Shown piece by piece: positions 26,117 through 37,681 of a DNA stretch of 64,000 bases (within the stretch, counting starts at the first letter, position 1; every line of letters starts with the position of its first letter). A model generated the notes under the pieces. It was given only the letters and a program-made list of their open reading frames with translations. It made no database searches and was not told the DNA's origin. A program made the translations under genes and the position numbers. This DNA is from an uncultured Gemmatimonadales bacterium (GTDB lineage: Bacteria > Gemmatimonadota > Gemmatimonadetes > Gemmatimonadales > Gemmatimonadaceae), in NCBI GenBank assembly GCA_963851265.1, contig CAWKNZ010000001.1:160001-224000 (forward strand), given 5' to 3'.

Positions 26117-27035
26117 CCGCGGCCGCAGGGCCCACGGCGCCGCCCCACCCGTCGCCCGGCGCGGCGCCTATCGGACCGCCCACCGCGCCGCCCACCGCGC
26201 CGCCTTCGGCCCGGTCCGCGCCGCGATGACCCTCGGTGCTGCCGTGCTTCTCGCCGCAGCCTGCACGGCGCCGAGCGTGCCACGTGCCACACCTGCGCCG
26301 GCTCCTGTCGCGTCGGCGAGCGGCGCGGCGGGTTCGAGCGGGGTCGGGACGAGGGACGTGAGCACGACGGGAGCTGGCTCGCCGGCGGCGTCCGCGCGAA
26401 CGCCTGTCACGACCGCCGCCGATTCGTCGCTCGCGACGACCAACGCCCCCCCGGCGCCGCTCGCCGACGACGCGACCGCGGCCGCACTGATGACCGACGT
26501 GCGCGCCGCCGAGTCGACCATTCGCGTCGAACTCCGTTACGCGACGCCGTACAACTTCACCGGTGCCGTGCTCCCGGGCTACGAGGCACCCCATGCACTC
26601 CTACGTCGCGAGGCCGCGGCCGCACTCGCCCAGGTGCAGCGCGCCCTCGCAGCCGACGGGCTCGGGCTCAAGGTGTTCGACGCGTACCGGCCCGTGCGTG
26701 CGACCGACGCGATGGTCGCGTGGACGCGCCAGGTGCACCGTGAGGACCTGCTCCGGGATGGGTACATCGCCGAGTTGAGCCGGCACAACCTCGGCGTGGC
26801 CGTCGACCTCACGCTGGTGGAGCTCGCCAGCGGCCGCGAGCTGAAGATGGGCACCGCGTTCGACACCTTCGCCGCGTCGGCGCACACCGCGAACGCGACC
26901 GGTGAGGCCGCGCGCAACCGGGCGCGCCTCGTGCGCGCGATGGGTGCCGCAGGGTTCGTGAACCTTCCGGAGGAGTGGTGGCATTTCAGCTATCCGGTGC
27001 CCGACCCGCGGCGGTTCGACCTCGTCATCCGCTGA
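26106..27035 (+). CDS. D-alanyl-D-alanine dipeptidase (M15D, VanX/DdpX-like) lipoprotein
   Basis: LRYATPYNFTG, FDAYRP, SRHNLGVAVDLT, EEWWHF; start 26106 or 26226. Confidence 0.88.
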   Translation: MRADRGRRAHGAAPPVARRGAYRTAHRAAHRAAFGPVRAAMTLGAAVLLAAACTAPSVPRATPAPAPVASASGAAGSSGVGTRDVSTTGAGSPAASARTPVTTAADSSLATTNAPPAPLADDATAAALMTDVRAAESTIRVELRYATPYNFTGAVLPGYEAPHALLRREAAAALAQVQRALAADGLGLKVFDAYRPVRATDAMVAWTRQVHREDLLRDGYIAELSRHNLGVAVDLTLVELASGRELKMGTAFDTFAASAHTANATGEAARNRARLVRAMGAAGFVNLPEEWWHFSYPVPDPRRFDLVIR

Positions 27036-27058
27036 TCCGTCTCCTCTTCCTTCAGTTC

Positions 27059-27982
27059 ATGCCCGCACCTCGCACGATCGCCCCACTCGCCGCCGCGCTC
27101 GGAATCGCGCTGGTCACCGCCTGCGCGTCCAGCCCGAGCATGGTCCACGATCACGCCGGAATGGCGGGGATGAGTCCCGCGCCGGCCGCCGCTCCGACGC
27201 CGGGCGTGGGCGCGGCCAACCTCCCCGCCGACGCGGCCGGTGCGGTCGCGCGGCTCAACGCCTCGCCACGGCATGGCGAGTACGTCACCATCCGGTCCGG
27301 CAACGATTCCGTGCGCGCGTGGGTGGTCTATCCCCAGCGCTCCACTCGCGCCCCGGTGGTCGTGGTCGTGCACGAAATCTTCGGCCTGTCGAGCTGGGTG
27401 CGTGCGGTGGCCGACCAGCTCGCGGCCGAAGGGTACATCGCGATCGCGCCCGACTTCCTCACCGGGTACCCGAACGAGGGGAACCCCGACAACGTCGGCA
27501 TGCAGGGCGCCGTGCGGCAGATCTCGCAGCTCGACGTGGGGCAGGTGCAGCGGCGGATCACGATGGCCGCCGAGTACGCCACGAGCCAGCCCTCGGCGCT
27601 GCTGCAGTACGGCGTGGTCGGATTTTGCTGGGGCGGATCGATCTCGTTCGCGCACGCGGTTTTCGCGGCGTCGCAGGGCACGCCGCAGCTCAAGGCGTCG
27701 GTGGTCTACTACGGGACCGCGCCGCGCTCGTCCGAGCTGGCCAGCGAGCGCGTGCCGATCCTCGGCCTGTTCGGCGGCAACGACGCGCGCGTGGTCTCGA
27801 CGCTCCCGCCGGCCGACTCGACCCTCCGCGCGCTCGGGCGCACGCACGAGTTCGACGTGTACGCGGGCGCGGGGCACGGCTTCCTGCGCCAGCAGAGCGA
27901 CTCGAGCGGCGCCAACCTCGCCGCGACCCGTCAGGCCTGGCCGCGTACGGTCGCCTGGTTCAAGCAGTACCTTGGCAGCTGA
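27059..27982 (+). CDS. Dienelactone hydrolase family lipoprotein
   Basis: HEIFGL, GFCWGG, AGHGF; lipobox VTAC. Confidence 0.9.
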   Translation: MPAPRTIAPLAAALGIALVTACASSPSMVHDHAGMAGMSPAPAAAPTPGVGAANLPADAAGAVARLNASPRHGEYVTIRSGNDSVRAWVVYPQRSTRAPVVVVVHEIFGLSSWVRAVADQLAAEGYIAIAPDFLTGYPNEGNPDNVGMQGAVRQISQLDVGQVQRRITMAAEYATSQPSALLQYGVVGFCWGGSISFAHAVFAASQGTPQLKASVVYYGTAPRSSELASERVPILGLFGGNDARVVSTLPPADSTLRALGRTHEFDVYAGAGHGFLRQQSDSSGANLAATRQAWPRTVAWFKQYLGS

Positions 27983-28049
27983 CGGCTGACGCGCCGCCGC
28001 CGGGAACCACCGGCGGACCGCGCGCGCTGTTCCGCTTTACATTGGCCGC

Positions 28050-28613
28050 ATGTCGCTGCTTTTCGTCGCCTGCTTCGTCGCCGGACTCGTGCTCGGCGTG
28101 TACGTCATGCTCAACGGCGTGGAACGCGCGCCGCAGCCGACGGGGCGCGCGCCGCACGAGGAGACCGGCGCGCACGACCCGCGTACGGAACCGCCGAAAG
28201 TCTTCAACGTTCAGACCGCGTCGGCGTTCGCGGTCGTCTTCGGCGGGGCGGGGTACCTCGCCATGCGGGCAGGGTGGACCAGCGCGGCCACCCTGGGCGT
28301 CGCGATCGTGGCCGGCGTCGCCAGCGCGGTGCTCTCGTTCGTCCTGCTCGCCAAGTGGGCACTGCCGAGTGCGCGGCGCGATGTCGTCGACGCGCGCTAC
28401 CTGATGCAGGGACATCCCGCCACGGTCACCCGTGCCATCCCGGCGGGCGGACTCGGCGAGATCGCCTACGAGATGGACGGGCGACGCTGGACGCTCGAGG
28501 CACGTGGGTGGGATGACTCGCCGGTCGGGCTCGGTGAGGAAGTGGCGATCGATCGGGTGGAAGGTGGGGTGGCGTACGTCGAGCAGTGGGCGCAGGTGGA
28601 AGCACGCCTCTGA
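28050..28613 (+). CDS. NfeD-like membrane protein (TM helices plus C-terminal OB fold)
   Basis: Three TM segments, then GHPATVTRAIPAGGLGEI...ARG...GEEVAIDRVEGGVAYV. Confidence 0.72.
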   Translation: MSLLFVACFVAGLVLGVYVMLNGVERAPQPTGRAPHEETGAHDPRTEPPKVFNVQTASAFAVVFGGAGYLAMRAGWTSAATLGVAIVAGVASAVLSFVLLAKWALPSARRDVVDARYLMQGHPATVTRAIPAGGLGEIAYEMDGRRWTLEARGWDDSPVGLGEEVAIDRVEGGVAYVEQWAQVEARL

Positions 28614-28635
28614 CGCGAGGCGGGGGGGTGGTGCG

Positions 28636-28929
28636 ATGTCGGACGCGGTCATCTTCGTGCTCGTCTTCGGGGGCCTCTTCGTCCTCCGAATCGTCGCGGC
28701 CACGGTGTTCTTCTTCTGTCTGCTGCCCGAAGGAGATCGTTGCCTGAACTGCGACGCGCCCACCCTTCGCGTACAGCGCGTGTTCTGGCACCGATGGGTA
28801 CCCTGGTTCCGGCCGAGCTGGTGCATGGAGTGCGGCTGGCACGGCCTGTTACGTTCCGGTCCGACCACCCCGCAGCCGACCGACGTCGCGCTGCCGCCGC
28901 CGAAGATCGTGACCAAGAAGCCGACGTAA
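28636..28929 (+). CDS. Small membrane protein with zinc-ribbon (CLNC...CMEC)
   Basis: N-terminal TM segment and two CxxC pairs. Confidence 0.65.
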   Translation: MSDAVIFVLVFGGLFVLRIVAATVFFFCLLPEGDRCLNCDAPTLRVQRVFWHRWVPWFRPSWCMECGWHGLLRSGPTTPQPTDVALPPPKIVTKKPT

Positions 28930-28948
28930 CGTCGGCGAACCGCCCTGA

Positions 28949-29812
28949 ATGGATCGACGCAAGTTCCTGCAGCACCTCGGTTGGCGCGGAACGGGCGTCG
29001 CAGCACTCGCGGGAACGGCAGCTCTCGGGATCTACGCGCACGACGTCGAGCCGTTCTGGGACGAACTCGTCGTGCGGCAGCTGCCGGTCGCGTCACTTCC
29101 GCCCGCACTCGACGGCGCCCGCCTCGCTCTACTTACCGACCTTCACGTCGGTCCGAGCGTCAGCGACGTCTACCTGGCCGGCGTCTTCGCTCGGGTTCGT
29201 CAGACCCGCCCCGACATCGTCGTCCTCGGCGGCGACGCGCTGACCCACCGCTCACGGGGCGGCGAAGCGCAGTACCTGCGCCTCCGCTCCGTGCTCGCCG
29301 GATTCCCCCGCGGCCGACTCGCCACGGTCGCCGTGCTCGGCAACCATGATTACGGCAGAGACTGGCGCGAGCCCGACGTGGCTGCCCGGGTCACGGCCGA
29401 GCTCGAGCGGGCCGGCGTCCGCGTCCTGCGCAACGACGCGGTGAACGTTGCCGGGCTCGATCTCGTCGGCGTCGAAGACCTGTGGTCCGGCGGCGCGGAC
29501 GCGTGGCGCGCCCTCAGCGCACGCCGCGGTGACGCCGCGATCGCGATCTGTCACAACCCGGATGGGGCCGACGAACTCGACTGGGGGGATTTCCGCGGCT
29601 GGATTCTCGCCGGGCACACGCACGGCGGCCAGTGCCGCCCGCCCTTTCTCCCGCCGCCCATCCTCCCGGTGCGCAACCACCGGTACAGCGCCGGCGAGGT
29701 GAGTGCGCCCGGCGGGCGCACGCTCTACATCAGTCGTGGCGTGGGGCACATCCTCAGAGTGCGGTTCAACGTGAGGCCGGAGGCGACTGTTTTCACGTTG
29801 CGGGCCGTGTGA
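28949..29812 (+). CDS. Metallophosphoesterase with Tat-like signal (YkuE-like)
   Basis: DRRKFL; DLH, GGD, GNHD, HNPD, GHTHGGQ. Confidence 0.9.
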   Translation: MDRRKFLQHLGWRGTGVAALAGTAALGIYAHDVEPFWDELVVRQLPVASLPPALDGARLALLTDLHVGPSVSDVYLAGVFARVRQTRPDIVVLGGDALTHRSRGGEAQYLRLRSVLAGFPRGRLATVAVLGNHDYGRDWREPDVAARVTAELERAGVRVLRNDAVNVAGLDLVGVEDLWSGGADAWRALSARRGDAAIAICHNPDGADELDWGDFRGWILAGHTHGGQCRPPFLPPPILPVRNHRYSAGEVSAPGGRTLYISRGVGHILRVRFNVRPEATVFTLRAV

Positions 29813-29968
29813 TGCGAGGGGGTGCGCGGGATCGGATCCGCGTGGGAGCCCGTGACCGGCCGCGGATGCAGGGACCGGCGAGTACATCCCCGGCCCCGGT
29901 GTTCGATCAGCACCTATCCGTGGCCGGTCACGGCCACGCGCGACGCCCTCGCCGTTCGCCCCGCCAGT

Positions 29969-30883
29969 TCACCGCCTCCGCTGTCGCTGGATCGGCACAT
30001 ACTCCCCGCGCTGCAACGCGATCGTGTACGCCCGCACCCGCGCGAGGTAATCCGCCGCCTCCACCCCCGCCGGCCCGAGCTCGGGCAACCGCCGCACCCA
30101 CTCGACCCCCAGGCGGTCGACCGCGTCGTGGGTCCAGACGTAGCCCTGGTTGTAACTCACGGCCACGAGGTCGAACAGCCGGTCCGACCCGATCGGCTGC
30201 CCGGCTGCGAGCTTCTGGCTGGCGAAGGTGCCGTACCCGCCGGGCCATGCATCGCTCGTCCACTTGGTCTGCAGCAGCCGGATCCAGTACTCGGCCGCCC
30301 GCGTGCTCAGCGCGGGATCGAACAGGTACTCGGTCCGGCTCGTGACGGCGCCGCGGGCGAGGCGGGCCCGCACGCTGTCGGCGCTGATGGGCGTCGCGGT
30401 CGAATCGACGTGGATTGCCGGATCGCGCGGCCACCCGTTGACCTCGGCCGCCATCCACGAGAACGACGGCGAGACGGTCATCGCACGCAGGTCGGCGTCG
30501 GCGCGCGGGGTGAGCTGTGCGATGCCGAGCGCGGGGACCGGGCTCACGGCGAGCGTATCGAGCGCGCTCTCCTTGATGAACAGGGCGGCGACGAAATTGG
30601 GGTCGATCTGGATGCGCGGGTTGACCGCGTCGCGTTCGAGCATGGGCACGACCCGCGTGTAGAACGCGTCGCGGTCGCTCGCCTGGATGAGGCGCGGCGA
30701 TCCGTTGGCATTCGTGAACGCGGTCGGCGACGGCCGACCGACGTGGGCCTCGCCGTACAACGTCACAGACAGCGGATCGGGGTGCGACGCGCACGCCGCG
30801 CCGAGCACGGTTGTGAGGGCGGCACCGACGGTGCGCAGGGGTAGGGCGAACGCGCCGGATGGGCGCGGGGCAGATCGAAGCAT
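29969..30883 (-). CDS. Lytic transglycosylase (SLT)-like lipoprotein
   Basis: Lipobox-like GAAC; ALFIKES, LGIAQL, SYNQG. Confidence 0.7.
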   Translation of the reverse strand: MLRSAPRPSGAFALPLRTVGAALTTVLGAACASHPDPLSVTLYGEAHVGRPSPTAFTNANGSPRLIQASDRDAFYTRVVPMLERDAVNPRIQIDPNFVAALFIKESALDTLAVSPVPALGIAQLTPRADADLRAMTVSPSFSWMAAEVNGWPRDPAIHVDSTATPISADSVRARLARGAVTSRTEYLFDPALSTRAAEYWIRLLQTKWTSDAWPGGYGTFASQKLAAGQPIGSDRLFDLVAVSYNQGYVWTHDAVDRLGVEWVRRLPELGPAGVEAADYLARVRAYTIALQRGEYVPIQRQRRR

Positions 30884-31039
30884 GAACCGGGTCAATGTGG
30901 TGCGGCGTGGAACGGGCGTCGGAGTCGTGCGGGCTCGCGCCGCTCGGCAGACCCGAGTCCCTCGGGGCGGCGCGTGCAGATCGCCCGTGGTGCGTCGCGC
31001 GCGGATTTCCATGCGGCGGTACAGCGCGGGCCTTCGCTG

Positions 31040-31360
31040 CTACGGCATCGCTCCCGCACCTTGTACACCCGATCCCCCGGCATCCCCCACGTACACGCGG
31101 AGCCACTCCGGCCAGTTGCTCGGCATTTCGAAGAAATCGTCGAAGTAGCGCAGGCCGAGCGCTTCGAGGTCGGCGAGAAGGGCACCGAGTGCGTCCTCGT
31201 CGTGAATCGGACCGAGCGCCACGAGTCCGCCCTCCACACGAAACTCGTCCGCCGTGAGCGTGAGTCGTTCGTCGAGCGCGGCTCGCACGAGCCCGGCGCG
31301 CTCGTAGGCGGCGCGCCGGATGACGAGCGTGACGTGGCCGGGGGTGATGCTGAGTGCCAT
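31040..31360 (-). CDS. Hypothetical protein
   Basis: Globular composition (LGLRYFDDFFEM...WPEWL); follows the M20 gene. Confidence 0.65.
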   Translation of the reverse strand: MALSITPGHVTLVIRRAAYERAGLVRAALDERLTLTADEFRVEGGLVALGPIHDEDALGALLADLEALGLRYFDDFFEMPSNWPEWLRVYVGDAGGSGVQGAGAMP

Positions 31361-31385
31361 GCGGGCGTGTGGATCGAAGGAGTGG

Positions 31386-32804
31386 TCAGGGCCGCGTGTC
31401 GCGCGCATCGCGCGGCGTAGTGCCGCGCGCCAGCCGGCTCATGAAGACGGCCGCGCGCGCCGCGCTCATCCGGAGCGACGGCAGGTAGATGAGTTCATGC
31501 GGGCTGTGCGCGCCCGCCCCGTCCACCCCCAGCCCGTCGATGCCGGGCATGAGCGGCGCCACGAACGACACGTCCCCCGCCCCGCGGCTCTCGGGCGGCG
31601 AGGTCGTCACGGCGGGGTAGCCCAGCGCGGAGCTCGCGCCGGAGTAGAGCGCGAGCAGGCGCGCGTTGGCCGGTGTCGCGGTCATCGCGGGGTACGCGTC
31701 CTCGAACGTGAAGCGCGCCTCGGTGCCGGCGAGCGAGTGCCCCGCGATCTGCCGCATGCGCGTGCGTGCCGAATCCTTCTGCCCCTCCGACAGAAACCGC
31801 AAGTCTCCTGTCGCCTCGAACGCGGGCGGCACGATGTTGCTCTTGCCGTCGGCCAGCAGCGTTCCCGCGGCCGAATCGGCGGCGACATGGGCCCCGCCGG
31901 CGAGGAGTCCCACGTTGAGCGTGAGTCCCGGCTCCCCGGACAGCGTGCGCCGCACGTCATCCAGGACCCGGGCACCTTCGTACACGGCCCCGTAGCCCAC
32001 GCCACTCGAGAAGATCCCCGACGAGTGTGCCTGGCGCCCGCTCACGTGTAGCTGCCACGAACTCGCCCCGCGCCGTCCGATCGCCGCGCGGGTCGCGGTC
32101 CCGCCCTCGAACGCGAGGGCGACGTCGCTCGACCGCGCGGCATCGAGCAGCGCCGCCCGCGCCTCGGCGAGAGGCCGCCCCGGTGCCTCCTCGTCGCCGG
32201 TCAGCACGACGGTCACCCGCATCCCGTCCAGCTCCCCGGCGTCGGCCAGGGCGTGCAGGGCGAGCAGGATGGCGACGTCTCCGCCCTTGATGTCGCTCGT
32301 CCCCGCCCCCCGCGCGACGGTGTCCTCTCGCACCCAGTGCTGCCCCTCGCCCTCGAACACGGTGTCGAGGTGTCCGATGAGCAGCAACCGTGGTCCGCGC
32401 GTGCCGTCGCGTTCGGCCACCAGATGGCCGCCGCGGTGCATCGTCGCGGGCACTTCTACCCACCGGGTCCGAAACCCGAGCGCCTGCAGCTCGCCCGCGA
32501 ACAGCGTACCCACCCGCCGCACGCCCTGCGTGTTGAGCGTCCCGCTCGGGATGTCGACGGCCCGCTGCAGGAGCGCCACGTGTGCGTCGTACCTCCGGTC
32601 GACCGCGTCGCGAATCGCCCGTTCCGCCGCACTCAACTCCGCTCCGCCGCACCAGCCCGCCACCACGCCCGCCGCGTGCCCCGCCGCTTCCTCCCGCACC
32701 GCGACGGGTGTGGCACGTGCCACACTCGCCGTTGTGGGCGCGGAACGGCATGCCGCGAACGCGAGGCACGCGAGAATGGTGGCCCGTGAAATCCCAGGCA
32801 ACAT
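31386..32804 (-). CDS. M20-family peptidase (carboxypeptidase G2-like) lipoprotein
   Basis: GHLDTVF, DIKGG, GDEE, GAGD, GAHSPHE; lipobox FAAC. Confidence 0.9.
   Translation of the reverse strand: MLPGISRATILACLAFAACRSAPTTASVARATPVAVREEAAGHAAGVVAGWCGGAELSAAERAIRDAVDRRYDAHVALLQRAVDIPSGTLNTQGVRRVGTLFAGELQALGFRTRWVEVPATMHRGGHLVAERDGTRGPRLLLIGHLDTVFEGEGQHWVREDTVARGAGTSDIKGGDVAILLALHALADAGELDGMRVTVVLTGDEEAPGRPLAEARAALLDAARSSDVALAFEGGTATRAAIGRRGASSWQLHVSGRQAHSSGIFSSGVGYGAVYEGARVLDDVRRTLSGEPGLTLNVGLLAGGAHVAADSAAGTLLADGKSNIVPPAFEATGDLRFLSEGQKDSARTRMRQIAGHSLAGTEARFTFEDAYPAMTATPANARLLALYSGASSALGYPAVTTSPPESRGAGDVSFVAPLMPGIDGLGVDGAGAHSPHELIYLPSLRMSAARAAVFMSRLARGTTPRDARDTRP
32708..32725. promoter_or_regulatory. 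parS-like palindrome, copy 1
   Basis: Perfect 18-bp palindrome GTGTGGCACGTGCCACAC. Confidence 0.75.
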
Positions 32805-32937
32805 CGGAACGCAGCGGTGGGCGCGCATGCGGCGCCTGCGCATGCGAGGAACGTGCACGAACCACCCGCACACGGCTCCGCACCGGCACGCCGCCGGCGA
32901 GCCGGACCTCACACGGCGACCGCCGGTACATTCTGGC

Positions 32938-34875
32938 ATGCGACGCACCGAAGCCCAGTACGACGTGCTCGTGATCGGCGGCGGTCACGCGGGCGTGGAA
33001 GCCGCAGTCGCCGCAAGCCGGTGCGGCGCCCGCACGGCCCTCGTCACGAGCGCGATCGAGACCATCGGCCAGATGTCCTGCAACCCGGCCATCGGCGGTG
33101 TGGCCAAGGGTACGGTCGTGCGCGAGGTCGACGCGCTCGGCGGCGTGATGGGGCGCGCGACCGATCGCGCAACCGTCCAGTTCCGCATGCTCAACCGCGG
33201 GAAGGGCGCCGCGGTGTGGTCGCCCCGCGCCCAGTGCGACCGCGGCCTCTACCGGCGCGCCGTGCGCCACGAACTCGAACGCCACGCCGGCCTCGACGTC
33301 GTCCAGGGCACCGTCGCACGGCTCCTGCTCGCTGACCACGCCACCGTGGTCGGTCTCGAGACGCTCGAAGGGCGCCGGTTGGGCGCCGCCGCCGTCGTCA
33401 TCACCACGGGCACCTTCCTCCGCGGTCGCCTCCACATCGGCACCACGGTCGCGATCTCCGGCGGACGTGCCGGCGACCCTGCCGCCGTCCACCTCGCCGA
33501 ACAGCTCGACATACTCGGCATCACGGTCGCCCGCTTCAAGACGGGCACGCCGCCGCGCATCGACGGACGCTCGGTCGACTACAGCCGACTCGCCCGGCAG
33601 GACAGCGAACTCCACGACGCCGACCCCACCCGCCCCGGCTATCGCTGGAGCCATTTCGACGATGCGGCGCCCACGCTGCCGCAGCTGCCGTGCTGGGGCA
33701 CGTACCTCGAAGAGCCCGGAAAGGCGCTCATCGCAGCCCACCTGCACGAGAGCGCGATGTACGGCGGCGCGATCGGCGCGCGAGGCCCGCGCTACTGCCC
33801 GTCGGTCGAGGACAAGATCGTCCGGTTTCCCGACGCCGCGCGCCACCAGCTCTTCCTCGAACCCGAAGGGCTCGACACGTCCGAGCTGTACGTGAACGGC
33901 CTCTCGACGTCGCTCCCCGCCGCCGTTCAGCTCGACATCCTGCACACGGTCGCGGGCCTGGAACACGCGCGCATGACGCGCGCGGGATACGCCATCGAGT
34001 ACGACTACTGCCCGCCGACCCAACTCGACGCCACCCTCCGCGTCCGCGCGGTCGAGGGACTGTGGCTCGCCGGACAGATTAACGGCACCACGGGCTACGA
34101 GGAAGCCGCGGGTCAGGGCGTCGTTGCCGGCCTCAACGCCGCCCTCTGGACCCAGCGTCGCCCCCCGGTCACGATCGGGCGCGAGTCGGCCTACCTCGGC
34201 GTGCTCGTCGACGATTTGGTCACCCGCGGGGTGGATGAGCCGTACCGGCTCTTCACCTCGCGATCCGAACTCCGTCTGACCATCCGCCAGGACAACGCCC
34301 TCCGTCGGCTCGCCCCCGTCGCCGCCTCCCTCGGCATGTACTCCGACGCCGAAGCGGTGATCGTCGAACGCCGCGCCCGCGACGAGGCCGACGCGATCGC
34401 CCTCGCCGAACGGACGAGCATCACCCCCGAGCGCGCCGCCCCGATCATCGCCGCCGCAGCGGCCGCCGGCGCCGCGGTCGGCGGGGTACCCCCGCACGCA
34501 GTCCGCGCCGACGAACTCGTCCGCCGCCCCGGCGTCGCGCTCGCTCCCCTCCTCGCCGCGTGCGACGTCGGCGCCGACCTCCACCCCGAGGCGGTCCACT
34601 CCGCCGAACTCGAGATCAAGTACAGCACGTACATGGCCCGCGAACGCGACCAGGCTGCCCGCATCGCGCGCCTGCGCGAGGTCCCGCTCGACGCCGCCCT
34701 CCCCTACGCGGAGTTTCGCTCGCTCTCGACCGAGGCCCGCCAGAAACTCGGTGCCCTCCGCCCGGCCACCCTCGCACAGGCCGGTCGCGTTCCCGGCGTT
34801 TCCGCCAGCGACCTGCAGAACCTCCTCGTCGAGGCAGCCCGGTGGCGACGCGACGCACTCGCCAGCGCCGAGTAG
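32938..34875 (+). CDS. mnmG: tRNA uridine-5-carboxymethylaminomethyl modification enzyme MnmG/GidA
   Basis: GGGHAGVEAA, MSCNPAIGG, GPRYCPSVEDK, AGQINGTTGYEEAA, EPYRLFTSR. Confidence 0.98.
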   Translation: MRRTEAQYDVLVIGGGHAGVEAAVAASRCGARTALVTSAIETIGQMSCNPAIGGVAKGTVVREVDALGGVMGRATDRATVQFRMLNRGKGAAVWSPRAQCDRGLYRRAVRHELERHAGLDVVQGTVARLLLADHATVVGLETLEGRRLGAAAVVITTGTFLRGRLHIGTTVAISGGRAGDPAAVHLAEQLDILGITVARFKTGTPPRIDGRSVDYSRLARQDSELHDADPTRPGYRWSHFDDAAPTLPQLPCWGTYLEEPGKALIAAHLHESAMYGGAIGARGPRYCPSVEDKIVRFPDAARHQLFLEPEGLDTSELYVNGLSTSLPAAVQLDILHTVAGLEHARMTRAGYAIEYDYCPPTQLDATLRVRAVEGLWLAGQINGTTGYEEAAGQGVVAGLNAALWTQRRPPVTIGRESAYLGVLVDDLVTRGVDEPYRLFTSRSELRLTIRQDNALRRLAPVAASLGMYSDAEAVIVERRARDEADAIALAERTSITPERAAPIIAAAAAAGAAVGGVPPHAVRADELVRRPGVALAPLLAACDVGADLHPEAVHSAELEIKYSTYMARERDQAARIARLREVPLDAALPYAEFRSLSTEARQKLGALRPATLAQAGRVPGVSASDLQNLLVEAARWRRDALASAE

Positions 34876-34911
34876 GCCGGTCCGCACCCCCACATTCTCA
34901 CCTGCCCGCCC

Positions 34912-35691
34912 ATGCCGTCCGCCCGCCCGCGCCGCACCCTGTCCCTCGCTCGCGCCCTCGCCGTCAGGACCATCGCCGTCGGGGCCATCGCCCTGTCACT
35001 CGGCGCGCCGTCCCGCGCCCGCGCGCAGACGCCGACCGGCGTGGAAACGTTCAACCCCGGCGCGGCCATCACCGTGACCGGCACAGGTGAGGACCAGATC
35101 GCCCCCGACCGCGCCCGCGTGTCACTCGGCGTGGTCACACAGGCGGCCACGGCGGCGGCGGCCGCGCAACAAAACGCGCGACTGCAACAGAGCGTCCTCG
35201 ATGCCGTCCGCGCCCAGGGCATTCCAGCCGAACAGATCTCGACCAGCGGTTACAACGTCAGCCCCACCACCGAGTACAACCAGCAGACGCAGCGCTCGCG
35301 CGTCACCGGCTACTCGGTGCAGAACACCGTGACCGTTGAGCTGCGCCGCATCGACCAGATCGGCCCCGTGCTCGACGCCGTGCTCGCGAAGGGAGCCAAC
35401 ACCGTCTCGTCGCTGGAACTCTACTCGTCGCAGGCCGAAGCCTCGCGACGCCGCGCACTCGCCAAGGCCGTGGAACGTGCCCGTGCCGACGCCGAAGCCA
35501 TTGCTGCAGCCGCCGGCGGGCGACTCGGCCTGCTGCTCGACCTGAGTTCCGCGCCCTCGTTCGGTCCTCCCCGCGCCTTCCCCATGGCCATGGCCCGCGT
35601 CGCCACGGCGCCAGCCACCCCCATCAGTGAGGGCCTCGAGACCAACTCCGCGAGCATCACCGCGCGCTGGCAGTTCGTGCCCCTCCGCTGA
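34912..35691 (+). CDS. SIMPL (DUF541) domain exported protein
   Basis: Signal peptide; ITVTGTG, APDRARVSLGV, AVERARADAEAIA. Confidence 0.88.
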   Translation: MPSARPRRTLSLARALAVRTIAVGAIALSLGAPSRARAQTPTGVETFNPGAAITVTGTGEDQIAPDRARVSLGVVTQAATAAAAAQQNARLQQSVLDAVRAQGIPAEQISTSGYNVSPTTEYNQQTQRSRVTGYSVQNTVTVELRRIDQIGPVLDAVLAKGANTVSSLELYSSQAEASRRRALAKAVERARADAEAIAAAAGGRLGLLLDLSSAPSFGPPRAFPMAMARVATAPATPISEGLETNSASITARWQFVPLR

Positions 35692-35713
35692 CCAACGTCG
35701 GCGCTGCGATCGT

Positions 35714-35731
35714 GTGTGGCACGTGCCACAC
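35714..35731. promoter_or_regulatory. parS-like palindrome, copy 2 (upstream of parA)
   Basis: Perfect 18-bp palindrome GTGTGGCACGTGCCACAC, identical to 32708-32725. Confidence 0.8.
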
Positions 35732-35824
35732 CCGCCCGCGCCCCGCATATCTTCCGCCTCCCGGTCCGCCCTCCCGGCTCCCCGCCCGCCGCTCGTCATC
35801 CTCCCGCGCTCTTCTGCTCCCGCC

Positions 35825-36643
35825 GTGACCCGCGTTCTCGCCATCGCCAATCAGAAAGGCGGCGTCGGTAAGACCACCTCCGCCGTGAACCTCGCGGCGA
35901 GTCTCGCGGTCGCGGAGCAGCGTACGCTTCTCGTCGACGCCGACCCGCAGGGCAACGCGACGAGCGGCATCGGCCTCGAGCGCGACGCGATCGGCGCGTC
36001 GTTGTACGACGTCCTTGCCGGCGAGCGTACCCTCGACGAGTCGGTGCACCGCGGCGTGCTCTTCCCGCACCTCGACGTGCTCGCTGCCACCCCGGACCTC
36101 GCCGGCGCGGAAGTCGAGTTGGTCGCTCGCGAGCGGCGCGTGCTCGCCATGCGTGACGCGCTCGAGCCGGCCCGCGGCCGCTACGACTACGTCCTCATCG
36201 ACTGCCCGCCCTCGCTCGGCCTCCTCACGGTCAACATGCTGGCGGCGGCCGACGCGGTGCTCATCCCGCTCCAGTGCGAGTACTACGCGCTCGAAGGGCT
36301 GTCCCAACTGCTCGATACGGTGCGGCGGGTTCAGCAGGGCACCAACCCCAACCTCGCCGTGGACGGCGTGCTGCTCACCATGTACGACGCCCGCCTCAAC
36401 CTCTCGCGCCAGGTCGCGGCCGACGCGCGCGAGTACTTCGGCCCGCAGATCTTCCGCACGGTCATTCCGCGCAACGTGCGGTTGGCGGAGGCGCCGAGCT
36501 TCGGAAAGCCGATCGTCCTGTATGACGTGACGTCGGTCGGCGCCCAGGCGTACATGGCCGTCGCGCAGGAGATCATCGAACGCGAGCAGGCGCGCGGCGC
36601 GCCGGCCGACGCTGCCGTAGCGGAAACGGCGGAGGCGGTCTGA
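35825..36643 (+). CDS. parA: Chromosome partition ATPase ParA/Soj
   Basis: ANQKGGVGKTT, DPQGNAT, IDCPPSLG, QCEYYALEG, IPRNVRLAEAPS. Confidence 0.97.
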   Translation: MTRVLAIANQKGGVGKTTSAVNLAASLAVAEQRTLLVDADPQGNATSGIGLERDAIGASLYDVLAGERTLDESVHRGVLFPHLDVLAATPDLAGAEVELVARERRVLAMRDALEPARGRYDYVLIDCPPSLGLLTVNMLAAADAVLIPLQCEYYALEGLSQLLDTVRRVQQGTNPNLAVDGVLLTMYDARLNLSRQVAADAREYFGPQIFRTVIPRNVRLAEAPSFGKPIVLYDVTSVGAQAYMAVAQEIIEREQARGAPADAAVAETAEAV

Positions 36644-37530
36644 TGCCCCCGGCCCCCCCACGGCGGCTCGGACGCGGCCTCGAGGCGCTACTCGCGTCAC
36701 GCACGGCGACGGAACCCACCCCGGAGGAGCGGAGCGCGCTGCGCAACATCCCGCTCGCCGAGATCCGGCCGAACCCGTACCAGCCACGGCAGTCGTTCCG
36801 GCCGGAAGAACTCGCAGAGCTCGAAGCGAGTCTGCGGACGTCGGGACTCCTGCAGCCGGTGACGGTGCGTCCTGCGGCGGAGGGGAGCGGGTACGAGCTC
36901 GTCGCCGGCGAGCGGCGTCTGCGCGCGGCCACCAACATCGGCTGGACCGAGATTCCGGCCGTCGTGAAGCCGATCGACGACCGGACGCTGCTCACCCTCG
37001 CCCTCGTCGAGAACCTGCAGCGCGCCGACCTCGACGCGCTCGAGGAGGCCGAGGGCTATCAACGTCTGCTCGACGAGTTCGGCCTGACGCAACAGCAGGT
37101 GGCCGAGGTCGTCGGAAAGGACCGCTCGACCGTGGCGAGCACGCTGCGCCTGCTCGCGCTCCCCGCTTCAGTACGCCGGATGGTGCAGGAACGGGATCTC
37201 ACCGCGGGACACGCGCGCGCCCTCCTCGCGCTCGGTGACGAACGGCCGATGGCCGATCTCGCGCGTGAGGCGGTGACCAACGGGTGGAGCGTGCGCGAGG
37301 TCGAGCGTCGGGTGCGCGCCCTGCTCGAACGCCCACCCCGCCCAACCGCGCCCGTGGCCGACGCGCGCCCGGCCGAAGTGCGGCGCACCGAGGACCACCT
37401 CCGCCGTCACTTTGCCACCGACGTTGCGATCAAGCTCACGGGTCAGGAGAAGGGGGAGATCCGCATCGCCTTCTACTCGGCGGACGACTTCGAGCGGCTG
37501 CTCACGACGCTCGGCACCCGCCCCGAGTGA
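36643..37530 (+). CDS. parB: Chromosome partition protein ParB/Spo0J
   Basis: LGRGLEAL, PNPYQPR, GERRLRA, ENLQR, HTH, GHARALL. Confidence 0.97.
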   Translation: MPPAPPRRLGRGLEALLASRTATEPTPEERSALRNIPLAEIRPNPYQPRQSFRPEELAELEASLRTSGLLQPVTVRPAAEGSGYELVAGERRLRAATNIGWTEIPAVVKPIDDRTLLTLALVENLQRADLDALEEAEGYQRLLDEFGLTQQQVAEVVGKDRSTVASTLRLLALPASVRRMVQERDLTAGHARALLALGDERPMADLAREAVTNGWSVREVERRVRALLERPPRPTAPVADARPAEVRRTEDHLRRHFATDVAIKLTGQEKGEIRIAFYSADDFERLLTTLGTRPE

Positions 37531-37571: not shown

Positions 37572-37681
37572 TGTGGACGAAGTTCTCCACATCCGGCCAA
37601 CGTCTTACCGCGCAATCACTTCCGGAGTTTTCCGCATGCTCGTCTCCCGATTTTCCACAGCTTCCCACATCGCGTGGATGA
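37572..37681. promoter_or_regulatory. Cluster of DnaA-box-like 9-mers
   Basis: TGTGGACGA, TTCTCCACA, TTTTCCGCA, TTTTCCACA, CTTCCCACA, CGTGGATGA within 110 bp. Confidence 0.6.

Follow-up and report, generated by a model that had tools for sequence, protein, structure and literature searches.

Results

A probable variant parS beside parAB

We analyzed a 64,000-nucleotide stretch of contig CAWKNZ010000001.1 from an uncultured Gemmatimonadales bacterium of the family Gemmatimonadaceae (assembly GCA_963851265.1, positions 160,001 to 224,000; hereafter the window, in whose numbering positions are given). The window carries the partition genes parA and parB. Judged from sequence comparisons, the palindrome TGTGGCACGTGCCACA beside these genes is quite probably the chromosomal parS of the genus, re-spelled from GTT(T/C)CAC to GTGGCAC in each half-site and likely read by the adjacent ParB, which carries Ser166 in its recognition helix.

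A scan of the window yielded two exact copies of TGTGGCACGTGCCACA, sites A and B (Table 1). As reported in an earlier note on this DNA, each widens to a perfect 18-bp palindrome, at 35714-35731 and 32708-32725, respectively, the former ending 94-95 bp before the GTG start codon of parA at 35825. The 14/16 copy described in the same note, site C (CGTGCCACGTGCCACA), was also present, with two mismatches; its arms are one GTGGCAC and one GTGCCAC. Thus, the window held three matches to TGTGGCACGTGCCACA at up to three mismatches as compared to a mean of 0.38 in shuffled sequences, and none of 100 shuffles gave three. In the whole genome (4.6 Mb, 94% complete, 73% G+C), TGTGGCACGTGCCACA occurred exactly twice, where 0.0002 occurrences were expected under an order-5 Markov model, and both copies lie beside mnmG-parA-parB, no more than 3.2 kb from parA. 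The frame GTG..ACGT..CAC had five matches genome-wide, three of them inside the window. Perfect palindromes of at least 16 bp numbered 735 in this G+C-rich genome, a list that is uninformative by itself; that of TGTGGCACGTGCCACA was the sole repeated one having at least four A/T and copies within a few kb of each other.

The canonical parS, TGTTYCACGTGRAACA, had no match at 0-1 mismatch anywhere in the genome, which extends to the whole genome what had been noted for the window. The closest match was a single two-mismatch hit on another contig and was unrelated. TGTGGCACGTGCCACA itself is three mismatches from TGTTNCACGTGAAACA and falls outside the consensus TGTT(T/C)CACGTG(A/G)AACA. The expectation of few copies near the chromosomal origin, oriC, was borne out in number and in proximity to parAB, but the two sites lie at some distance from the origin: 181-185 kb (~4% of the genome) separate them from dnaA, which is on their contig and next to the densest DnaA-box cluster. 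GC skew analysis did not locate the origin; based on dnaA and the box clusters as markers of oriC, the sites are few, palindromic over 16 bp, near parAB and on the origin side.

Probable replacement of canonical parS in the same slot

Among 41 genomes, TGTGGCACGTGCCACA was found twice in each of four, all of one genus: the source genome (G000), G001, G003, and G004. A fifth genome of the genus (1.7 Mb, 78% complete) was without the motif, and its parB was also not found. Similarly, the exact 16-mer was present in 4 of 301 genomes of the family, which were only those four. Site A occupies a slot 86-110 bp before parA in the genus. Site B is exact in G001, G003, and G004, ~215-235 bp before mnmG. 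Neither copy varies by a single letter among the four genomes, although the flanks are unalignable. No canonical parS was found at 0-1 mismatch in any of the five genomes of the genus, four of which are well assembled.

The ParB orthologue had one match per genome in 38 of the 41 genomes. All 34 relatives outside the genus that have ParB hold a palindrome in the parS frame in the slot before parA that differs from TGTGGCACGTGCCACA: in most it is canonical or nearly so, in G008 it is a single-G form, and in G013 it is a hybrid. Given that the parS in this slot is a different one, and mostly canonical, in all of these relatives, the TGTGGCACGTGCCACA palindrome is very likely the parS of the genus, to judge by position and conservation. 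This in-place replacement is the main evidence for the motif being parS. Of 18 further loci of the phylum, 12 had canonical sites and the other 6 had no site in range. Family loci having GTG-type palindromes were at parA in 3 of 26 screened, and 8 of 16 further loci contained parB. One-mismatch matches to the motif in G022 and G034 were not near parAB genes and were treated as chance.

The earlier note placed the two intragenic copies, sites B and C, in linkers of lipoprotein genes and took their codons as forced. The codons are indeed rare: in seven genes of the window, the share among synonymous codons was 5% for GCA (Ala), 7% for CGT (Arg), 3% for ACA (Thr), and 4% for CCA (Pro). The placement holds in this genome, where site B encodes VARAT on the minus strand in the frame of the M20 peptidase gene, but site B is intergenic in the three relatives, and the M20 gene had no match in G001, G003, and G004 at E ≤ 1e-60. 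In G001 and G004, the orthologous dipeptidase gene does not contain site C, which is therefore at most weak and lineage-specific; a role as a weak extra site is plausible.

Residue 178 of ParB

The ParB of the window has three domains (an N-terminal CTPase, a helix-turn-helix, and a C-terminal dimer domain) and an arginine patch, GERRLRA at residues 89-95, of the form GERRxRA. It is the sole full-length ParB of chromosomal type in the genome, which holds three further ParB_N matches, two of them next to ParA-like genes. The residues that specify parS-type recognition are kept as R161 and G189, corresponding to R173 and G201 in Caulobacter. Alignment to Caulobacter ParB identified the recognition helix as DRSTVASTLR, and alignment to the structures 6T1F and 1VZ0 placed Ser166 at the position of Asn178, so the conserved asparagine is missing. 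Specifically, residue 178 (Caulobacter numbering) is Ser in all four ParBs of the genus versus Asn in all 34 other relatives with ParB, and Asn in all 18 further loci of the phylum. The change from Asn to Ser corresponds to one transition, AAC to AGC. PMC7383237 lists N178 among six parS-contacting residues that ParB and Noc both conserve, and Asn164 of Helicobacter pylori ParB is given as one of the specific DNA-binding residues (PMC11229316). The window ParB nests within the ParBs of its own family in trees and shares 68% identity with that of G013.

It is highly probable that this ParB binds the variant sites. The proposal in the earlier note of a rewired parS is likewise supported by the slot homology across 34 relatives, the low copy number beside parAB, the lack of canonical parS in the genus, and the matching change in the recognition helix.

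Recurrence in Acidobacteriota

A search of GTDB genomes for exact copies of the 16-mer yielded at least 119 stretches, mostly from Pyrinomonadaceae and related Blastocatellia. The flanks of the matches listed spanned 3.5 kb in 80 of 119 loci and only ~300 bp in the other 39. Among the matches listed with long flanks, eight loci had one to three copies of the 16-mer between mnmG and parA; all eight ParBs of this Acidobacteriota clade, which includes Pyrinomonadaceae, have Thr at position 178 and are ~40% identical to the window ParB. The single exact matches listed from other phyla had no parA or parB within the flanks examined, and five such genomes provided no new Ser/Thr ParB (one Asn, one unparsed, two without a ParB match, and one a Blastocatellia genome already counted).

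Thirty Blastocatellia loci sampled regardless of the motif comprised 3 with Thr, 1 with Ala, and 26 with Asn. The three Thr loci have GTGG sites, including TGTGGAACGTTCCACA and TGTGGTACGTACCACA; the Ala locus was without a site in range, and none of the 26 Asn loci had a GG majority. A further 26 Acidobacteriota loci all had Asn. In a tree calculated without the helix columns, the Ser genus falls inside its own family and the Thr/Ala clade inside Blastocatellia. A single origin of the Ser and Thr clades was rejected with the helix columns removed (approximately unbiased test, p = 1.6e-48; 40 rows, LG+G4; the topology was the same using 105 rows). By these trees, the paired change of site and residue 178 appears as two events that arose independently in two phyla.

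A second ParB-like protein of ~275 amino acids is encoded elsewhere on the chromosome in most of the sampled Blastocatellia (G046-G085). In G041:C1:3393913-3394765 (L198, L200), parB was matched in two frames, possibly due to a sequencing frameshift.

Co-variation of site and residue

We tallied residue 178 and the half-sites in 159 loci having at least 250 bp upstream of parA. Loci with less were left out, as were G003, whose parA is divided between contigs, L185 and L199, which were truncated or unrelated, the duplicates L200, L380, and L381, and L252, from an unpublished genome. All 16 Ser/Thr loci had only GG half-sites (76 of 76). Of 140 Asn loci, 125 had a site; none of the 125 had a GG majority, and GG was found in 9 of 438 half-sites. 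On this basis, loss of Asn178 rather probably causes or permits the GG spelling.

Several observations weigh against so direct a link or against reading the palindrome as an ordinary parS. The motif itself led to 10 of the 13 Thr loci, many loci are close kin, and the co-variation rests on only two independent events. In 21 loci, Asn178 ParBs occur with a single-G majority half-site, GTG[C/T]CAC. Asn178 ParBs also accompany GTTGCAC in another family and, in L202 and L307, hybrid sites of which one arm is GTGGCAC. Thus, Asn178 forbids neither G. A further spelling, TGTGAAACGTTTCACA, occurs four times before parA at a locus whose ParB has Ala178. Because Asn tolerates one G, hybrids exist, and Ala178 occurs with TGTGAAACGTTTCACA, residue 178 may permit a spelling rather than dictate it. 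Position on the chromosome is a further difficulty, the sites of the genus being 129-186 kb from dnaA versus 14-30 kb in two canonical relatives. Finally, some Pyrinomonadaceae carry 11-81 dispersed copies of this 16-mer, which is not the pattern of a classical parS.

The GTG[C/T]CAC form tracks Thr174: it was the majority half-site in 21 of 23 Thr174/Asn178 loci versus none of 56 Ser174/Asn178 loci, several loci having been picked by site. It occurs at the parS slot in several other genera of the family (L257, L258, L282, L283, L307, L308, L311, L318, L333, and L363-L374), in which Thr174 occurs with Asn178 kept; L365 has His178. The single-G and hybrid forms may mark a path from the canonical to the GG site. 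In the genome with the Ala178 locus (G044:C39:27900-28584, L196), TGTGAAACGTTTCACA and GG forms are scattered, for a total of 57 matches, which suggests a second re-spelling in progress.

Matches to TGTNNCACGTGNNACA were distributed chromosome-wide in some Pyrinomonadaceae-like genomes: 81 in G041, 58 in G043, 24 in G044, and 11 in G042. In G041 (L076, L387-L392), the sites occur approximately every 55 kb and are mostly intergenic, some inside a longer shared A+T-rich repeat, and a tandem of six precedes parA. Four Asn178 relatives had 0-8 matches to a looser pattern. The scattered sites could be a dispersed centromere, serve a Noc-like role, or belong to a parS-carrying repeat element.

Proposed function and alternative explanations

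If the palindrome is the parS of the genus, then by the established ParABS mechanism, in which ParB loads at parS, clamps on cytidine triphosphate (CTP), spreads, and engages ParA (PMC7022226), sites A and B would be the loading points for ParB dimers, which would close on CTP and spread. ParA would then pull the loaded ParB and so segregate the origin region. Autoregulation of parAB is also possible because site A lies 17-34 bp before a conserved TATCTT: ParB at site A, next to this putative -10 element, may damp transcription of parAB.

A more far-reaching version holds that the single change of Asn178 to Ser/Thr re-specified the primary ParB to GTGGCAC twice, in two phyla, without duplication and via hybrid intermediates; the natural pair would be orthogonal to the canonical one, and the Pyrinomonadaceae site would then have spread chromosome-wide in dozens of copies. 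We put this forward tentatively, as somewhat short of an even chance.

The alternative that survives best accepts the palindrome as parS but supposes that ParB became, or had always been, tolerant of changes at half-site positions 3-4. The GG would have drifted in under high G+C, Ser166 would be relaxed or hitchhiking instead of switching specificity, and canonical parS would still be bound. The single-G and hybrid sites beside Asn178 fit such tolerance, as do the 73% G+C of the genome, the one transition that separates Asn from Ser, and the small number of independent events. However, GG in 76 of 76 half-sites of the Ser/Thr loci indicates fixation rather than tolerance, the Acidobacteriota copies of the 16-mer sit in A+T-rich flanks, and both copies are letter-perfect in four genomes whose flanks cannot be aligned. 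We consider this explanation possible but on the whole doubtful.

It is quite improbable that the palindrome is a CRP/FNR-type operator of the mnmG and parAB promoters, with the true parS missing from the assemblies. Operators of this type have the consensus TGTGA-N6-TCACA with a variable spacer and occur at many promoters. The palindrome is one base per arm from the CRP consensus, both copies are upstream of operon starts, and intergenic copies are scattered in Pyrinomonadaceae. Nevertheless, the palindrome fills the parS slot of 34 relatives. TGTGG-N6-CCACA occurs genome-wide only at the two exact sites, with an invariant central CACGTG, whereas the four TGTGA-N6-TCACA sites of the genome have unrelated A+T-rich spacers and form a separate class. 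The distance from site A to TATCTT varies from 17 to 34 bp, and canonical parS is missing from all four well-assembled genomes of the genus. The palindrome thus does not have the properties of a CRP/FNR-type operator.

That the site belongs to an accessory ParB-like protein, or that a parABS cassette was transferred horizontally from Acidobacteriota, is very improbable and largely refuted already by the tree test: the genome does encode further ParB_N proteins, two beside ParA-like genes, and the 16-mer is identical in Acidobacteriota, but the accessory pairs have doubled palindromes of their own, the window ParB nests in its own family, and a joint clade was rejected.

Features of the locus

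The reading of the palindrome as a re-spelled parS is set in a gene layout typical of a type Ia chromosomal ParABS, in which a Walker-A parA lies directly upstream of parB near gidA/mnmG. The gene order is M20 peptidase (minus strand), site B, mnmG, SIMPL, site A, parA, parB, the DnaA-box-like cluster, and a BMP-family lipoprotein gene. The predicted signal peptide and linker of the M20 peptidase overlap the conserved site B; the three relatives in the genus have a different gene there. The five DnaA-box-like 9-mers after parB are also found in G001 and G004, and three other relatives have four; the cluster is far from dnaA and is possibly a DnaA-titration or origin-related element. The accessory parA-parB-like pairs (G000:C6:80667-82989 and G000:C8:258161-260817; L385 and L386) carry the doubled palindromes GTTGTGCGGCACAAC and GTTCTGCGGCAGAAC, which differ from TGTGGCACGTGCCACA, and contigs C6 and C8 may be secondary replicons or integrated elements. 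The third further ParB_N protein is encoded on C9.

Table 1. Features of the parAB region, in window coordinates
Feature	Position	Strand	Remarks
Site A, main candidate variant parS, TGTGGCACGTGCCACA	35715..35730		Intergenic; 110 bp upstream of parA start
Site B, second candidate variant parS	32709..32724		~215 bp upstream of mnmG; inside predicted N-terminal linker of M20 peptidase lipoprotein
Site C, possible weak third site, CGTGCCACGTGCCACA	26276..26291		In linker of D-Ala-D-Ala dipeptidase lipoprotein; not conserved
parA, Soj-type Walker-A ATPase, 272 amino acids	35825..36643	+	Pfam AAA_31, E = 4e-61; KGGVGKTT motif
parB, 295 amino acids	36643..37530	+	ParB_N, HTH_ParB, and ParB_C domains (PF02195, PF17762, PF23552), above cut-off
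Ser166 codon (AGC) of parB	37138..37140	+	Aligned with Caulobacter Asn178
mnmG (gidA)	32938..34875	+	TIGR00136, 703.6 bits, above cut-off
SIMPL (DUF541) gene	34912..35691	+	Between mnmG and parA; PF04402, E = 2e-50; syntenic in many relatives
M20 peptidase, predicted lipoprotein	31386..32828	-	Start codon uncertain
D-Ala-D-Ala dipeptidase (Peptidase_M15) lipoprotein	26226..27035	+	Holds site C
Five DnaA-box-like 9-mers	37572..37681		Directly 3' of parB; second-densest such cluster in genome
TATCTT, putative -10 of parAB promoter	35748..35753	+	Conserved, 17-34 bp after site A in four genomes; inferred promoter role

Comparison with known systems

From the comparisons presented above, the system appears to be a genus-wide variant of the primary chromosomal ParABS having a convergent change of protein and DNA, and to be new. 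A full-text literature search found no paper with GTGGCACGTGCCAC or TGTGCCACGTGGCACA, its reach not including subscription papers, figures, or supplementary tables; topic searches listed no paper on such a parS variant. Searches based on the consensus would score these lineages as being without parS.

The chromosomal ParABS systems of Caulobacter crescentus, Bacillus subtilis, and Thermus thermophilus use the parS TGTTNCACGTGAAACA (Jalal et al. 2020, PMC7383237; Kawalek et al. 2020, PMC7022226). The system described here shares with them the parA-parB operon in the gidA region, a three-domain ParB with the arginine patch and the equivalents of R173 and G201, and a 16-bp palindrome with half-site letters G1, T2, C5, A6, and C7, in few copies on the origin side. 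It differs in having GG instead of T(T/C) at half-site positions 3-4 and Ser instead of Asn178. GG at these positions does not occur in any consensus given for a primary chromosome in Table 1 of PMC7022226. The specificity of chromosomal ParB for parS is described as conserved across bacteria, and all 17 ParBs tested preferred canonical parS (PMC7383237). Here, both partners of the resident pair appear to have changed, and the identical 16-mer arose in a distant lineage together with a similar residue. The single-G and hybrid sites of sister lineages leave the evolutionary path open to test.

Noc and the Noc-binding site (NBS) of Firmicutes likewise represent a natural change of DNA specificity in the ParB family via recognition-helix residues (PMC7383237). 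As described there, Noc arose from duplication, and this one dissected natural switch needed the duplicate gene; it affects half-site positions 1 and 6 via Q173/K179/K184/R201 and serves another function. In contrast, the present change concerns a single resident ParB without a duplicate, at another residue and other bases: the window ParB has R, T, A, and G at the four Noc positions, and its sites are confined to parAB, whereas NBS half-sites (ATTTCCC) are scattered over the chromosome. The private parS sites of secondary chromosomes and plasmids, such as those of chromosome II in Vibrio cholerae and Burkholderia cenocepacia (Table 1 of PMC7022226), are also non-canonical palindromes with a cognate ParB, but these are plasmid-type systems of secondary replicons, while that at mnmG-parAB is a vertically inherited primary system. 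Finally, the engineered TtParBm/ParSm pair of ParSite (PMC11798528) is also an altered ParB-parS pair, but its engineering followed the route of Noc, whereas the pair described here is natural, involves other positions, and is only a candidate for orthogonality. If orthogonal, it would provide ParB-based locus labelling, whose palette would be extended by one more independent parS (PMC11798528), with a further channel.

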